From positions 89,094,001 to 89,158,000 of the forward strand of contig OZ320316.1 in NCBI GenBank assembly GCA_976226885.1: a stretch of DNA of 64,000 nucleotides, read 5' to 3'. Origin of the DNA: Iphione sp. A-MEVVRFRX5. Lineage: Eukaryota. The notes under the pieces are model-generated. The model saw nothing but the letters and a program-made list of their open reading frames with translations. It was not told the origin of the DNA and ran no database searches. Of the stretch, positions 48,185 to 55,677 are shown piece after piece. How positions within the stretch are numbered: position 1 is the stretch's first letter; each line of letters starts with the position of its first letter. Both the position numbers and the translations under genes were made by a program.

Positions 48185-51100
48185 AAAACTTTTATTTCAT
48201 TTGTAGATGACATACTTATAGTATTTACATCCAACAATCCTTTTTCACATTAGCATGATAACAAGTGACAATGATAATGATGATATAGGGAAAGACAATA
48301 TGATGTATTTTAGTAACAACACATTTTCTTTAGGATAACCGTAGTATCATGTACACATGAGTGCATACTTCATGGGACTGCCATCACAGAATATTTTCTA
48401 CATTCATAACACATTTGTACAGAGTCATGAAGTACGTCACAGTCAACTAAGGCACTTTTAAAGATAGGATATGCTTTCTGGTTAACTTATTAATACTAGA
48501 CCAGAACTCCTTGTGATTTTTTGTTCTTAGATCGTTTGGGAGTTGCTCCCATAGCTTATAACATGTGTACTCAATCAATTTTTTATAGGCTTCAAACTTA
48601 GGCCTATTTACCACTAAGACTCTCCTGTTTGTAGTTCTTGTATTTTACCCTGGTTGTTTTTTCACGGTTGATTATGATATGAGAGCATGTACAATCTTTT
48701 GTCTCTTTTGGCTAAGAAGCCATTTAACACCTCCTCCCCGGATACATACTTGTTGCCATAGGCACAGTTTATGATAGTTTTTCTACAAGTGATCATCTTC
48801 CTAAATGACGCTGCATGCTCATTGGTGTGTACAGATATACCGTAGTCACCTACCGGTAGAACCATAGTTTTTGCAACCCGCAGTGCATGATTGGTGTTAA
48901 TAAAGCGTCTTACAATTTGGAAATGAGACAGCCTTTGGTATAGACTTCTAGTTATTAACCTTTGTTGCTTTTCCATTTTCAATCTACTATGGAGGACAAC
49001 CCGTAGATAGGTTTCTTCATTTACAACACTTATATTCGTACCTCCTAATGTGACAACTCGCAGGACGTTGTCTGTTTCTCTACCATAATGGAAGTGGATA
49101 ATATATGTTTTGTTTGTGTTGAGTAATAATATCCATGCTTTTTTTTTTGCCATGCTTTTTGTCCATGCAATCAAACTGGCCAGATCTTCCTTTAGTTTAC
49201 ACATGGCATCTGTGACATCATCACCAGATGTAATCATGGCAATGTCATCTGCATGCATATATATCCTGGAATGTTTTACAGAACTAGGGATTGAATTAAT
49301 AAAAAGTGTAAAGAAGAGGGGGCCCAAGTGGATCCTTGTGGGACCCCACACGTTATGGGCCCCCTCCTCGACAAGGTATCATTACTTTTTACTTGCTGTG
49401 TTCGACCTGCTAAGTAATGCTTAATCCACTCTAAATTACATTGCGAAAGATTGATTTTACTAAGCACAAACATAAGGATACTGTGGTTGACTGAATCGAA
49501 TGCCTTCTGCAGGTCTATGAAAGCTCCTAAAACAGTCTTTTTATTGTTTAAGCCTTTGTGCACTGTATTCATCAAATCTATGATAGCCATCTCAGTCGAG
49601 TGTCACTTCCGAAAGCCATATTGATTACGGCATAGAATTTTGTTACTTTCTACATAATTGTATAATTTTGTGTGAACAACTCGCTCTTGTATTTTTCCTA
49701 CAAAATTTAATAAACTGAATGGGTGGTAATCGCCTGGTTCCATTGCAATTTTCCTTTTTGGGATTGGTACAATAATACTTGTCTTCCAATCCGGTGGTAT
49801 TTCTCCAGACATAAAACCCTTGTTATACAGACATGTCAGTATTCCAGGATTATTCAAGAATATTTTCTTAATCACTCCCTGCTGGATATCACTTATGCAT
49901 GAGGTCTTAGAATCCAAGAATGTCTTAATTGCATGTATAACCTCCTCATCTGTTGTTACAAAATCATCTAATAGTGTTTTCAGAGTTGGCAATTTAATTT
50001 CATTTAAAGTCAGAGTGTTAGTTGGGTTTATTTTTTCCATGATTTTATTACCAATATTACTATAGAATGAGTTCAGGTGAGAACACACATTTTCTCATGC
50101 AGTAGGCATGTTATTCTGGACCAGCTTAATTTCATTATCTCCGAATATACCATACCCTAGACTTGTTTTAATAAATGCCCAGTACTTTCTCCTATCTCCG
50201 TACAGCTCATCTGCCTTTTCCACGATGTATCTCCTCTTGTCCTGTCTTACAGCATACATAACAGATTTCCACTTCATTCTAAAAATCAACCAGTCTTCTA
50301 TCTGCTTAGTTTTAAGTGCTCTACGATGTAAAATGTTTCGTTCCTTTATTTTTTGCCTAGATTCCTCTGTCATCCACACATTCTTTGGTTGTTTTATCTT
50401 CATTAATCTTTTCGGATTAACATCATCAAAGTAGTTTACAATCAGTGACTGAATTTTTGACCAACCTAGTGATACCATACAACCAAAGATATTCACTTCA
50501 GTCAGCAACTTTGATACATTGTTGACAAAAATTTCCTCATTAAACTTCCTTCTACTTCTCACCAGCCATTCCTTAGTATGCACTTGTGGAAATTTTGAAA
50601 GTTCACACATAACCATATGATGATCACTCAATGACATTTGTTCAACAGTTGTTATTAAAGATTGTGTAGTGATATTAGTGATTACTAAATCAATAAGTGT
50701 GTGTCATCATTGAGTCTCACGAGTAGGCACATGTATCTTCTACTGACAATTATGCTCATCCAGAAAGGTAAACAAACGTCATGGGGCAATTTTTGACTTG
50801 ACTTATATATTTATATTGAGATCACCAATAATGATTATGTCTCTTTGTACTCAGAATTAGAATTGTTAGTTATCATCTCCCGTAGCTCGGATAGACAGTT
50901 TTCGACATTCCCTGGTGGGGGACGATATACACCACATATAATCAGTTTCTTTCCATTTTTAAGCGACAATTATGCTCATCCAGAAAGGTAAACAAACGTC
51001 ATGGGGCAATTTTTGACTTGACTTATATATTTATATTGAGATCACCAATAATGATTATGTCTCTTTGTACTCAGAATTAGAATTGTTAGTTATCATCTCC

Positions 51101-51456
51101 CGTAGCTCGGATAGACAGTTTTCGACATTCCCTGGTGGGGGACGATATACACCACATATAATCAGTTTCTTTCCATTTTTAAGCGACAATGTTAGCCATA
51201 CACATTCCAGGTCAATAGAAGGAAATGACATCGCATCTAAGAGGTCAATTTCAGTACTTAAAATATCTCTGTAGAATATTAATATTCCACCACCCGTTTT
51301 AGTGCTTCTGTCCTGTCGTATAAATTTATAACCATCAATTACATAGAGACTGTCAGGTATGTTTTCATTTAACCATGTTTTAGATAAAATAAAAATATCT
51401 AAGTTTTTTTCTAATATTATTTCCTTTACTAAGTCATGTTTATAGCGAAGACTCCG
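48185..51456 (-). mobile_element. Decayed CR1/L2 LINE ORF2 (APE + RT + 3' UTR), interrupted at its 5' end by the Ngaro element
   Basis: Minus strand: IRSLRYK...LDIFILSKTWL...DGYKFIRQDR...GGGILI, YRPP, GDLN, LIDLVIT...SDHH, YHPFSLL, QYGFR, FIDLQKAFDSVNH, GVPQGS (about 49333-49347), HADD, LWEQLP; AATAAA near 48190-48195. Split over the ORFs 50095-50637, 49603-50088, 49276-49590 and 48662-49351. Confidence 0.95.
50745..51190. repeat. Perfect 220-bp tandem duplication inside the LINE APE domain
   Basis: 50745-50964 equals 50965-51184 by eye; GACAAT at 50745, 50965 and 51185 bounds the units. Confidence 0.97.
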
Positions 51457-51611
51457 TATATATATGAATGATAAATAGGATATTTATTATAGTATATGTA
51501 TGTAACCATCCACTTGTTGCTGTGCTAAGAGAGTTGCTATGTAACCATAGAGCCGATGTCGTCATGTTCCATTGTCAACGGATTCACTCAGCCAGTCGCT
51601 TTTAAATTTTT
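51457..51611 (+). repeat. Split direct repeat A1 (5' end of the element)
   Basis: TATATATATGAATGATAAATAGG...GCTTTTAAATTTTT, identical by eye to 55460-55614. Confidence 0.97.
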
Positions 51612-51640
51612 CGGTCGTGATTCCTACAGCAGGAGATATC

Positions 51641-52486
51641 ATGGGGAAATTTTGCAAAAAGTGTGGTGTGAACCACCCCCCACCAGTTGGGAAAGCCTGC
51701 AAAGAGGTGTCAGAAGGCGACGGGAAGCTAAATGAAGCTACTGGTTTGGAGAATATGTCAGAATTTACCAGTCGTTTGGATCGCTTAGAGGGGCTGATCG
51801 AGACTTTGGTTACAGCAAAGGGCGGTGACCAAGAGAAGAAACCATCAAGTCTTCAAGCCCAGACTGACGATTCCAGTGAGGAAGAATCAGATTCTCCAGA
51901 CTCGGAGATTGATGATGAAGAGGCAGAAAAGAAGAGGTCGAGGAGGAGGAAAAAGAGTCTCGGTAAGAAAGTGAGAAGATTTGACATTACACGTTATGTT
52001 GATGTGGATGAGATTGACTCTTTCGAGCAGCTGATCGTTGGATCACTGGGGCTGTTAAAGAGACTTTTGTCAAAAGGCAATAATGTTGAGGCTTACGCGA
52101 ATCATCTAGCCTTTGTGGCGTCGAAGGCAGCCACGAAAGTATATAACCCGAAATCTTTGGTGAAATACGATCGTGAAGCAAGACGTAAGGCAGCGAAGGA
52201 GAGTGCAAGTTCATTCGTCTTCGGGGATACAGAACTCGTGCACAAGCATCTAGGGGTAGATGCTACCAATGGCGTTTTGAAGTCGAAGCAGATGAAGAAA
52301 GTCAAGAAGACGGACAGGATCTGCTATAAATATAATGCTGGTGACTGCAACGTGGACGGCTGTACCTACAAGCACTCTTGCCTTAGCTGTGGGACTGGCG
52401 GACACAGGGCAAGTGAGTGCTTCGGCTCTAAAACTACAGAGGGCGACAAGAGCAGCAGGACGAAAAGTGCGTCTAAACAGCAATGA
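51641..52486 (+). CDS. gag: Gag-like ORF1 of the Ngaro element (281 aa from ATG 51641)
   Basis: N-terminal CKKCGVNHPPPVGKAC (C-x2-C-x3-H-x7-C), coiled coil (SRLDRLEGLIETLV), acidic then basic stretch (EKKRSRRRKK), and C-terminal CYKYNAGDCNVDGCTYKHSCLSCGTGGHRASEC Cys/His knuckle typical of DIRS/Ngaro gag. Confidence 0.9.
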   Translation: MGKFCKKCGVNHPPPVGKACKEVSEGDGKLNEATGLENMSEFTSRLDRLEGLIETLVTAKGGDQEKKPSSLQAQTDDSSEEESDSPDSEIDDEEAEKKRSRRRKKSLGKKVRRFDITRYVDVDEIDSFEQLIVGSLGLLKRLLSKGNNVEAYANHLAFVASKAATKVYNPKSLVKYDREARRKAAKESASSFVFGDTELVHKHLGVDATNGVLKSKQMKKVKKTDRICYKYNAGDCNVDGCTYKHSCLSCGTGGHRASECFGSKTTEGDKSSRTKSASKQQ

Positions 52487-54475
52487 CGGTGCTTTGGTGG
52501 TGTGGATAAACTGGTGGTAGGTGAGGCTTATGTAGTCGAGCTCGAAGATAAATTTGTCTTATCTACTGATTTGATGGGAGTAGCCAGTTTAGATGATACA
52601 CCAGAAGCTGAGAACCCCCAGACGGTGTGTGTTGACGGAGAGATTCCTTGTGTCGATCCCGTGATGTTGGACGTTGGGAGCGTAACCCAGTCGGACAGTC
52701 GAAAGGTACTTTCAGACTCTTTCATTCATGACCATATTTTTCAGGAGCAGAATATGGACGATGATTATTTGGTGACATACAAATCACCAGAGAGTGATGA
52801 AGTTGTACGAATTTTTGAAAAGTGTGTTGATGCTAAATGTAGTTGTAGGCATCTCTTGGGGGGGGGTAGCAGCCAGCCTACTCCCATGTCGTTGTATTAT
52901 GCCTATATGTAAAAGCTTGCTGTCTGATGAGCAAAAGTGGTTTTTATGGAATGGCATGGTTAAAGGCTTCAAAATTGTTGACGATCCATGTAACACGGCT
53001 TATGATTGTGTGAACTATAAATCCATTACTGATGGTGATTTTTGTATAGCTATGACAAAGAAAATTGAAGAGGAGGTTGCATCAGGTGTGGTATCTGAAG
53101 TAAATTGTAAACCTAAATGTATCAATGCATTGGGAGCGGTTAGCAAACCAGATGGGTCACTAAGGCCCATAACAGACTGTTCCATGCCGGTAAACAAAGG
53201 TATAAATAATTACATGACATCAACTTATAAGCCTTTCCATTATAACACGGTTGACAACATTGCATTATTGCTGGAGCCCAATGAATACATGATGGTAGTA
53301 GATGTTAAAAGCGCTTACAGAGCAGTCCAGGTGTGCCCCGAGCATCGTACTTATCAGGGCTTTGCTTGGAAGCAAGATGACCAAAGGAGATATTATGTTA
53401 ATAACAGTCTTTGTTTCGGGCTTAAGTGCGCTCCTTATATTTTTTCATGTATATCTGACCTTATAAGAATGGAGTGTGTCAGGCGCTGTAATGCAAGGGT
53501 GGTAAATTATTTAGATGATTTTATTATCATCAGTAATAGTTATGATTCTTGTTTGGAAAAAGGCAACTGCATGATTGATGTAATTGAAGCTATGGGTTTC
53601 AAGGTTGCTAAAGAGAAAGTCACTGCCCCAAGTAAGGTGTGTCGATTTCTAGGGATTGACATTGATTCAAGTGAAATGGAACTCAGACTGCCGATAGACA
53701 AGGTGGTTAAGTGTAAGGGTGCCATTAACACTATCTTATCTTTAAGAAAGGTATCAAAGAAATCTGTGGAAAAACTGTCTGGGTTGTTAGCTCACTGCGC
53801 CACCGTCATTAAAGGGGGCAGGACTTATGCTCGCAGTGTCTATAATTGGTTAAATGATTTCAAGTCGAACCGACAGATGAAGCCAATCCCCGATATTGTT
53901 GAAGCAGACTTGAAATGGTGGTTAACCTTCATGGAATTGTTTAATGGTAAAAAGAAAATTATTGTTGATCGTTTTCCGTCAGCCTGTATCACAACTGATT
54001 CCTCGAGCAAGGGGTTTGGGGGGTGGTGTGGGGATGACTGGTTTTTTGGGAAGTGGGATGGTGATGCTTGGCCATTGGATCTCTTCGATCACCACGTTGA
54101 ACCCTGCCCTAGTGGTATGCAAGGGGGATTACACATCAATGTCTGTGAACTATGGGCAGTGGTTGTGGCTTTGAAGCGGTGGAGCAGCTGTCTTAGAGAC
54201 AGGATGATCAAGATTGTTACAGATAACATGACCGTTTTATTCATGTTGCGCAGTGGACGTAGTTCAAACAGACTCTGTTTGTCTTGGCTCAAAGAAATTT
54301 TTTGGACCTGTAGCATATACAATGTATACTTTGTAGTGGAGTATGTCTCTAGTGAATGTAACACGGTAGCGGATTCGTTGTCAAGAGGCTATGATAAATT
54401 AGCTTTGCATGTGTTAGGAACGACGAAGTGGATTGACACTTGCTGTTGCGGTGATGTTCTCTCCAATCTTTGCAG
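51963..54475 (+). other. Predicted 2513-nt intron joining the gag 5' part in frame to YR
   Basis: Donor CTCG|GTAAGA in Gly codon 51962-51964 (phase 1); acceptor TTCTCTCCAATCTTTGCAG|GT in Gly codon 54475-54477 of the YR frame (phase 1). Inference from splice consensus and phase only. Confidence 0.55.
52487..52912 (+). CDS. Pol N-terminal extension, in frame with gag after the TGA; probably joined to RT across the G9 run at 52858-52866
   Basis: Open frame from CGG (52487) through VDKLVV...CVDAKCSCRHLLG. There is no ATG near its start. Removing one G gives HLLGGVAASLLPCRC..., continuous with the RT ORF. Confidence 0.65.
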   Translation, partial: RCFGGVDKLVVGEAYVVELEDKFVLSTDLMGVASLDDTPEAENPQTVCVDGEIPCVDPVMLDVGSVTQSDSRKVLSDSFIHDHIFQEQNMDDDYLVTYKSPESDEVVRIFEKCVDAKCSCRHLLGGGSSQPTPMSLYYAYM

Positions 54476-54575
54476 GTCTGAGAGAGGAACTTTCGGAGGA
54501 GATGAGGACTTTGAGAAGGAATGCAGCATCAGAAAACACATGGAAAGCCAGAGATTGTCAGTGGAAGTGCTATAA
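52794..54575 (+). CDS. pol: Reverse transcriptase / RNase H (DIRS/Ngaro type)
   Basis: RT motifs LRPITDCS, VDVKSAYR, LCFGLKCAPYIF, YLDD (53508-53519), GFKVAKEK, FLGIDIDS. RNase H acidic residues in TDSS, INVCEL, TDN and NTVADSLSR. Confidence 0.96.
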   Translation: MMKLYEFLKSVLMLNVVVGISWGGVAASLLPCRCIMPICKSLLSDEQKWFLWNGMVKGFKIVDDPCNTAYDCVNYKSITDGDFCIAMTKKIEEEVASGVVSEVNCKPKCINALGAVSKPDGSLRPITDCSMPVNKGINNYMTSTYKPFHYNTVDNIALLLEPNEYMMVVDVKSAYRAVQVCPEHRTYQGFAWKQDDQRRYYVNNSLCFGLKCAPYIFSCISDLIRMECVRRCNARVVNYLDDFIIISNSYDSCLEKGNCMIDVIEAMGFKVAKEKVTAPSKVCRFLGIDIDSSEMELRLPIDKVVKCKGAINTILSLRKVSKKSVEKLSGLLAHCATVIKGGRTYARSVYNWLNDFKSNRQMKPIPDIVEADLKWWLTFMELFNGKKKIIVDRFPSACITTDSSSKGFGGWCGDDWFFGKWDGDAWPLDLFDHHVEPCPSGMQGGLHINVCELWAVVVALKRWSSCLRDRMIKIVTDNMTVLFMLRSGRSSNRLCLSWLKEIFWTCSIYNVYFVVEYVSSECNTVADSLSRGYDKLALHVLGTTKWIDTCCCGDVLSNLCRSERGTFGGDEDFEKECSIRKHMESQRLSVEVL

Positions 54576-55404
54576 AGACTTTTGTAGCAAAGCTGGGTTT
54601 ATGACATTACCTTGTAGTGTTATGCAACTGTGTATGTTTTTGACTTTCCTGGCGAGAGATAAATGTTTTTCGTCTATAAGAATGTATTTATCTAGTGTTA
54701 TTTATTTTTCAAATTTATATGGTTACCCATTGTCAATACAGGGTAATTTTGCTGTTCAAGAGGTGTTGAAAGGTATCAAACGTACAAGGAATTTCGTTGT
54801 TAGGAAAGCATCTGTGATTTCTATTGAAGACATGTCAGCACTCTGTGATACATTCGACTTGTCTAGTAAGATGGATATGATGTACTGGACTGCTATGTTG
54901 TTTGCTTTCCGGTGTTTATTGAGAAAAGAGTTATATACCTATCCAAAGTGTCTTCTTTGGGAGGATGTGAAATTTGTTAAAAACGGCATGTTATTAAGAA
55001 TTAATAAAGGTAAAACTTTCACTGATTCCTCTAGGAATATAGTAGTTCCAGTGGGTTATAGTATTGTTAAAAAATTCTGTATAGTGAATTTGTTGAAAGC
55101 GTGGAAAATTGTTTGTAAAGGTGGTGGTTTAGATCCGATTTTTTGTATCCGAGAAGACCAAAATAATATATGTTTAACTTATAATATGTTCAGAGACGCT
55201 TTACGTAAAGCATGTGATTGTATTGGCTTGATTGATGTGACTAGTCACTCGTTCCGTAGAGGTGGTGCCTCGTTCTTAGCCTCTAAAGGCGTTTCTCTTC
55301 ACGAGATCAAGTTTAGAGGGGATTGGCGTTCCAATTGTGTTTTCAAGTATATTGACATGAGTAAGGAGGATTTATTTAAATCCAACGAGTTGTTGTTTGT
55401 TTGA
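54433..55404 (+). CDS. Tyrosine recombinase (integrase) ORF3, overlapping the end of RT/RH
   Basis: SAM-like N-terminus (NTWKARDCQWKCYKDFC), FRCLLRKE (catalytic R), INKGKT, HSFRRGGAS (H-x-x-R, H codon 55246), RGDWRSNCVFKYI (W...Y). Confidence 0.96.
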   Translation: MTLAVAVMFSPIFAGLREELSEEMRTLRRNAASENTWKARDCQWKCYKDFCSKAGFMTLPCSVMQLCMFLTFLARDKCFSSIRMYLSSVIYFSNLYGYPLSIQGNFAVQEVLKGIKRTRNFVVRKASVISIEDMSALCDTFDLSSKMDMMYWTAMLFAFRCLLRKELYTYPKCLLWEDVKFVKNGMLLRINKGKTFTDSSRNIVVPVGYSIVKKFCIVNLLKAWKIVCKGGGLDPIFCIREDQNNICLTYNMFRDALRKACDCIGLIDVTSHSFRRGGASFLASKGVSLHEIKFRGDWRSNCVFKYIDMSKEDLFKSNELLFV

Positions 55405-55414
55405 TTGGGTTTGG

Positions 55415-55467
55415 AGTCCTCCAGCTTGTTGTTCCCCAATCTGTCGTTATGTGTTATTATATATATA
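55415..55467 (+). repeat. Split direct repeat B1
   Basis: AGTCCTCCAGCTTGTTGTTCCCCAATCTGTCGTTATGTGTTATTATATATATA, identical to 55625-55677; overlaps A2 in the TA run. Confidence 0.97.
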
Positions 55468-55614
55468 TGAATGATAAATAGGATATTTATTATAGTATAT
55501 GTATGTAACCATCCACTTGTTGCTGTGCTAAGAGAGTTGCTATGTAACCATAGAGCCGATGTCGTCATGTTCCATTGTCAACGGATTCACTCAGCCAGTC
55601 GCTTTTAAATTTTT
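55460..55614 (+). repeat. Split direct repeat A2
   Basis: Identical to A1 (51457-51611). Confidence 0.97.
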
Positions 55615-55624
55615 GTCTTAATGA

Positions 55625-55677
55625 AGTCCTCCAGCTTGTTGTTCCCCAATCTGTCGTTATGTGTTATTATATATATA
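55625..55677 (+). repeat. Split direct repeat B2 (3' end of the element)
   Basis: Identical to B1; separated from A2 by 10 unique nt (GTCTTAATGA). Confidence 0.97.

Follow-up and report, generated by a model that had tools for sequence, protein, structure and literature searches.

A tyrosine-recombinase (YR) retrotransposon in the 64,000-nucleotide stretch of Iphione sp. DNA analyzed here (the window) carries between gag and pol a single, conserved in-frame UGA, and sequence comparison makes programmed readthrough very probable at this Ngaro-type gag-pol junction. We propose that, where the UGA is followed by CGG, CGU or CUAG, a small share of ribosomes would insert an amino acid and continue, and that a Gag-Pol fusion of about 977 residues would be the only form in which the reverse transcriptase (RT) is produced. 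Most ribosomes would stop at the UGA and release Gag; the weak UGA-C context would let a near-cognate tRNA win over eRF1 in perhaps a few percent of cases, and this local context, not an extended 3' stem, would carry the signal. Lacking a protease to cut it, the fusion would stay whole and bring RT into the Gag particle. Splicing between gag codon 108 and the YR acceptor would yield a second fusion, GagN-YR, of about 416 residues. The scheme offered comprises Gag, Gag-Pol by readthrough and GagN-YR by splicing; under it, a pol gene whose annotation begins at the first Met would be too short, and a stop at the junction would be no mark of a dead copy.

The element and its gag-pol junction

The junction lies inside a 4.2-kb element (51457-55677; Table 1) with the gene order gag-like ORF, RT/RNase H, YR. 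Its layout, A1-[ORFs]-B1A2B2, is that of Ngaro elements (PMC8547959; all papers are cited for the part of their text that was accessible), and an A-type repeat was present in 82 of 92 longer loci. A Pfam search of the window ORFs and of an intact 695-aa pol yielded neither a DDE integrase nor a protease, and no methyltransferase family matched pol at E<=0.05; absence of the methyltransferase separates Ngaro from DIRS1-like elements (PMC3266345). We conclude that, judged by repeats and gene content, the element is Ngaro-type, the trees comprising copies from its own genome, the metagenome locus L162 and two proteins from another source. It shares the split repeats, the gene order and the lack of methyltransferase, protease and DDE integrase with Ngaro elements of Cafeteria burkhardae (PMC8547959) and fungi (PMC3783388), but differs in having gag and pol in one frame with a conserved leaky-type stop and in its predicted gag-YR splice, neither of which is described in the accessible text of those papers. 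The first-pass annotation had set the in-frame arrangement against overlapping frames as the usual state of YR retrotransposons; this is indeed the usual picture for pol and YR of DIRS1-like elements, but in Ngaro elements overlapping ORFs are not the rule, as far as the accessible text of PMC3266345 goes.

An exhaustive search returned 290 gag homologues at E<=0.001, and among the matches listed most end just past the finger; a word-based homologue search found nothing, and no Pfam Gag family matched. The Gag model had a pLDDT of 64, and its best fold match (Z 6.2, rmsd 3.8, 83 aligned) was a designed helical repeat. The label gag is therefore a provisional one, given for a position as in other Ngaro elements, and the zinc-finger-like end would fit it. 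Ahead of RT, residues 68-160 of the L032 pol (window ~52690-52960) were confidently modelled as a small alpha/beta domain with invariant cysteines, for which a fold search gave no clear match (best Z 3.1).

Table 1. Features of the element and of its gag-pol junction, in window coordinates
Feature	Position	Strand	Evidence
Split direct repeat A1 (element left end)	51457..51611	+	155 nt, 100% identical to A2
gag-like ORF1, 281 codons, C-terminal Cys/His zinc-finger-like motif, TGA end	51641..52486	+	ORF, homologues
Predicted 5' splice donor G/GTAAGAA after gag codon 107, phase 1	51963..51969	+	GT in 54/55 families, top synonymous-conserved columns
Nucleotide-level conserved motif CAGA(T/G)GGCGAC, ~50 nt before stop	52437..52447	+	Synonymous excess 0.5-0.9, codons -18..-15
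Codons -5/-4 GCGTCT (ACGTCA in most families), complementary to TGACG	52469..52474	+	Synonymous conservation
Predicted readthrough site CAG CAA TGA CGG TGC	52478..52492	+	TGA 164/165 clade places, +4 C 145
pol 5' part in gag frame: linker and start of Cys-containing folded domain	52487..52912	+	
Conserved pol N-terminal motif, codons 14-28 past stop, upstream of first in-frame ATG	52526..52570	+	aa identity 0.67, pN/pS 0.19
RT and RNase H part of pol, stop-to-stop ORF	52776..54575	+	Pfam RVT_1 E 2e-18, RT_RNaseH E 3e-4
G9 run breaking pol frame in window copy (real indel or assembly error)	52858..52866	+	
Predicted 3' splice acceptor ...TTTGCAG/ before YR frame	54461..54475	+	With donor in 54/55 families
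Tyrosine recombinase (YR) coding region	54476..55404	+	Pfam Phage_integrase E 3e-6
Element right end B1-A2-B2: B1 55415-55467, A2 55460-55614, B2 55625-55677	55415..55677	+	

At the junction, the codons AAA CAG CAA TGA CGG TGC TTT occupy 52475-52495. As the first-pass annotation had read it, the TGA (52484-52486) stands in the frame opened by the gag ATG (51641), and this frame stays open past it for 141 codons, to 52912. The accompanying statement that no ATG lies near the junction holds only for conserved ones: an out-of-frame ATG overlaps the window stop (AUGA at 52483, 8 codons) and the first in-frame ATG is codon 30 past it (52574), but neither is conserved among the 55 families defined below (11/55 for the overlapping ATG, codon 3 to 189 for the in-frame one). 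Likewise, the expected fusion of about 977 aa matches a natural relative rather than the window copy. In L002/L032, a 91% identical copy, 695 codons are open past the stop (281 + 1 + 695 = 977), while in the window copy as assembled the break in the frame at the G run precludes full-length Gag-Pol.

The element sits at a TA-rich place in a broken LINE-like element with RVT_1 fragments (window 48662-51483, minus strand, and 55678 onward), which itself contains an exact 220-nt tandem duplication (50745-51184). The host genome measures 1.18 Gb.

Conservation of the stop, its context and the pol frame

TGA was found in 30/30 of the first loci, the window copy included. DNA and RT searches (4 of the 150 RT matches listed were left out) supplied 160 loci representing 152 distinct places, and a gag-end profile located the end in 146 of them (6 dropped). 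An in-frame stop stood at the expected place in 144 of the 146, and all 144 were TGA; in the remaining 2, gag is frameshifted, yet CAG TGA CGT is present in the RT frame. On the counts for the first loci and the located in-frame stops (144/144), a private nonsense mutation was rejected. The sense codon that the first-pass annotation had named as contrary evidence occurred in none of the own-genome copies with a located gag end. Its other concern, a pol in a different frame, was not borne out either: RT shares the frame of the stop in 121/143, and the 22 with shifted RT are taken as broken copies. In 57 copies no fewer than 270 codons ahead of the stop and 670 past it are open.

With 21 further clade places (n=165), the stop was TGA in all but one, which had TAA. 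The triplet after it was CGG in 43, CTA in 41 (39 of them followed by G) and CGT in 37, the rarer ones being CAA (7), CAT (6), CAG (5) and others (26). Near-copies were limited by grouping into 55 families below 90% protein identity (45-71%, median 51%); TGA was present in all 55, +4 C in 51 and one of CGG, CGT or CTA in 43. By comparison, other TGA triplets in the same elements were followed by C in 737/4610 cases and by CGG, CGT or CTA in 115/4610. The real terminators of pol were TGA (19), TAG (19) and TAA (16), with TGA-C in 3/54, and those of YR had TGA-C in 1/33. The TGA-C context of the junction is far above chance. A reassignment of UGA in the host code was rejected, as TGA ends pol in 19/54 and YR in 24/33 scored copies.

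The context is not uniform. The +4 C was absent in 20/165 copies, including 4/55 intact families (GGA, AGG, TGG), and CGT, common here, is not among the listed type II triplets. On a quick tree, the CTAG label required 3 changes, with the CTAG family L078 placed inside a CGG group, and a sister subclade with different flanking peptides also had TGA-CTA. Five near-identical tandem copies (L037-L041; G000:C22:24.58-24.60 Mb), four of them at 5369-base spacing, all had TGA-TGT.

Past the stop, a 15-residue motif (alignment columns +16..+30) showed a pairwise aa identity of 0.67, and its synonymous sites vary as freely as those of RT. Its pN/pS was 0.19 versus 0.27 for the RT core (54 pairs), and the flanking linkers were weakly constrained (0.69 at codons +1..+15, 0.86 at +31..+70). 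Met was absent before the motif in 51/55 families and absent through it in 49/55. The first in-frame Met ranged from codon 3 to 189, the first invariant one being column +201, and in 13/55 it lay beyond the invariant cysteines of the well-modelled domain. Since the first Met varies so widely and often lies past the selected motif or the cysteines, pol has no shared AUG, and an own pol ATG, which the first-pass annotation had named as a further possible objection, was nowhere conserved before the N-terminal motif under selection. In codons +1..+15, near-cognate starts were scattered over 30/55 families. Furthermore, an analysis that recovers the gag donor and the YR acceptor found no 3' splice acceptor between stop and motif. 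Because the selected frame has neither a shared AUG nor an acceptor, readthrough is likely the remaining simple route into it.

For YR, a different route is likely, namely production from a conserved gag-YR splice that the sequences predict. The predicted intron of 2.5 kb would remove pol and join GagN to YR. The splice phase fits the YR frame in 54/54 families, and in 42/54 under a stricter open-length rule on partial loci.

RNA folding was analyzed around the stop, the first-pass annotation having suggested to look for a stimulatory stem in the 150 nt 3' of it. Four kinds of analysis revealed no conserved stem. The 3' flank of the window copy had a z of -1.61. The 90-nt windows at +0/+6 had mean z of -0.6/-0.8, no lower than other pol windows (28/55 families), 27-nt windows at +3..+27 folded at shuffle level, and RNAalifold placed 0 pairs around the junction. 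A mild folding excess was seen at +54..+63 (38-41/55 under the shuffle mean), as was a hairpin from -21..-15 enclosing the stop (45-47/55), without covariation. Very long-range pairing was probed for one upstream motif only.

Two upstream motifs are conserved at the nucleotide level and suggest another cis function at the junction. The 52437-52447 motif may resemble a CTCF site, and the 52469-52474 motif a CRE half-site. Pairing of codons -5/-4 with TGACG was accompanied by no compensatory change in CTA families. In more distant clade members both motifs fade (4/21 for 52437-52447, 5/21 for 52469-52474).

Other routes into pol

These upstream motifs are one argument for an internal promoter at the junction, with TGAC/GTCA and CAGA(T/G)GGCG acting as DNA-binding sites and a separate pol RNA translated from a non-AUG start or the first AUG. 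Synonymous conservation at codons -18..-15 and -5/-4 would fit it, and a junction promoter has a precedent in Tca2 (PMC2194720). We nevertheless consider it very unlikely: the selected motif precedes the first Met in 49/55 families, near-cognate starts are scattered (30/55), and the motifs fade (4/21, 5/21) in distant members that keep TGA-CTA(G). In addition, a promoter leaves unexplained the TAG-CAA-YYA of a second clade described below, as does a TGAC arisen by chance, and the pol of Tca2 was itself traced to a gag-UGA-pol RNA (PMC2194720). Removal of the stop by splicing, through the gag donor or another, is harder still to credit, even though a real-looking donor and YR acceptor exist in 54/55 families. 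Between stop and motif, the best acceptor-like site scored at most 1.5, versus at least 9.2 for YR acceptors (the matrix was trained on YR acceptors and hence favours them), and the phases were mixed. Past the stop no AG is conserved; the conserved AG at -52 lies upstream and scores poorly.

The UGA might instead be recoded otherwise, as selenocysteine, by A-to-I editing to a tryptophan codon or by hopping, and the almost invariable UGA and the W at the junction of two proteins from another source speak for this. Such recoding is nonetheless hardly plausible, for the second clade has UAG-CAA-YYA, no copy has a Cys codon at the site, no conserved duplex surrounds the stop, and the flanking codons rarely match, as hopping needs. 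No Rfam family matched at E<=1 in 10 loci, with the reservation that Rfam SECIS models may miss divergent elements. As for ribosomes that stop at gag and restart at an overlapping or nearby AUG, the AUGA of the window at 52483 and a sister clade with UAAUG or AUGA and the ATG in the pol frame give the idea some substance. In the window clade, however, the overlapping ATG does not share the frame of pol, opens 8 codons and occurs in 11/55 families, which leaves restart with a probability close to nil. Readthrough thus remains the preferred reading.

Known systems and junctions of other lineages

To our knowledge, expression of the three ORFs in DIRS-order elements has been little tested. Full-text literature searches produced no report of readthrough in these elements, although classic subscription papers, Repbase or supplements may mention it. 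The accessible text of PMC8547959, PMC12440569, PMC6681497, PMC7192593, PMC3783388, PMC3266345 and PMC5009743 contains no mention of it for them.

The local context of the window clade is that of viral type II sites (alphavirus nsP3/nsP4, tobra-, furo- and coltivirus), in which UGA is likewise followed by CGG or CUA(G); the assignment of UGA-CGG/CUA to this type in the first-pass annotation agrees with PMC3542737. In VEEV (CAA CAA CAA UGA CGG) Gln codons precede the stop, as here, and the coltivirus UGA CGG UGU matches the clade context (PMC13517186). In contrast to the viral sites, the clade has no conserved extended 3' stem, CGU as well as CAA/CAG variants are common, and the host is a retrotransposon. 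A 3' stem is given for most viral type II sites (PMC3542737, PMC13517186); the stem-loop starts ~8 nt 3' of the stop and is usual, not universal. Because no such stem is conserved here, the resemblance to alphaviruses is limited to the local context. Mammalian UGA-CUAG readthrough genes share stop and CUAG context with 39 clade places and include some without predicted structure (PMC4132726).

The proposed readthrough would work like that of MuLV gag-UAG-pol (PMC5009743), where a single in-frame stop sets the Gag/Gag-Pol ratio, with a local context of alphavirus type; MuLV differs in its UAG-G with pseudoknot (type III), protease and LTRs; here there are split repeats and YR. The gag-UGA-pol of Candida Tca2 (PMC2194720) is another such stop in a retroelement. 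Tca2 differs as a yeast LTR element that lacks split repeats with YR and whose flanks did not drive readthrough: tested in a yeast reporter, its junction showed none and proved to contain a minor promoter (PMC2194720). A junction of this kind can thus fail in a reporter and conceal a promoter, which speaks against the proposed readthrough.

A further RT search, started from a distant metagenome element, gave 90 more loci (30 returned and 60 hand-picked from its 147 rows). The gag stop shared the frame of RT in 50 of them and lay outside it in 30; in the other 10 no stop was called. Of the in-frame loci, 19 had TGA and were window-clade members, and 31 had TAG, in every case followed by CAA. 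CAR-YYA was matched by 30/31 TAG loci (11 families once filtered at 85%); the TAG loci form a separate lineage in a quick tree, with an RT identity of 37-45% (L169, L173, L177, L178, L180, L181, L187-L194, L196-L204 and others). Tobacco mosaic virus has UAG-CAR-YYA as its type I readthrough motif (PMC3542737), so the second clade carries this exact motif in 30/31 in-frame TAG loci, whereas in the window clade CAA-YYA or CAG-TTA follows the UGA in a few families only.

Among the 30 other-frame loci, 10 had a pol-frame ATG that overlaps the gag stop or adjoins it, 12 were classed as overlap-type, with short gag/pol overlaps, and the rest were frameshifted copies of the in-frame clades. In the stop-start lineage (L167, L168, L170, L171, L174, L179, L189, L212, L218, L249), the ATG is in the pol frame and the junction reads TAATG in 6, ATGA in 3 and TAATCATG in 1, a stop-restart pattern known from caliciviruses, influenza B and SART1 (PMC10275272). 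In 7/12 overlap-type loci the pol-frame ATG lies exactly 67 nt ahead of the gag stop (L208, L214, L223, L233, L235, L243, L248). In these lineages, a pol in another frame mostly has its own ATG there, and a pol in the gag frame has in its place a leaky context of known type.

One genome thus contains, in sister lineages, the two textbook contexts of viral readthrough as well as the stop-restart pattern, which would make these strategies interchangeable in evolution. We consider it probable that YR retrotransposons are an overlooked and very large reservoir of translational recoding, with three lineages using three virus-style routes to pol in one genome (UGA-CGG/CGU/CUAG readthrough, UAG-CAA-YYA readthrough and UAAUG/AUGA stop-restart) and a gag-YR splice for YR, and that the divergent families amount to a natural mutational scan of leaky contexts working without 3' RNA structure. 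They would offer many natural contexts for readthrough assays.

Beyond this genome, a search of viral contigs yielded no relative, and one of metagenome contigs yielded 5 loci, of which L162 alone had a YR-type gag/pol junction, with overlapping frames. One family from another source includes a Gag ending in PAKRK (P0290) and an 1100-aa Gag-Pol reading PAKRK-W-pol (P0288). Because the same cluster holds both the Gag with the PAKRK end and the Gag-W-Pol, the one-codon gag-pol junction appears to reach beyond this genome. P0159 has the same W at the junction. The W of these proteins may stem from a TGG codon or from a TGA translated as W. P0005 was listed with P0288, P0290 and P0159 as a member of this family.
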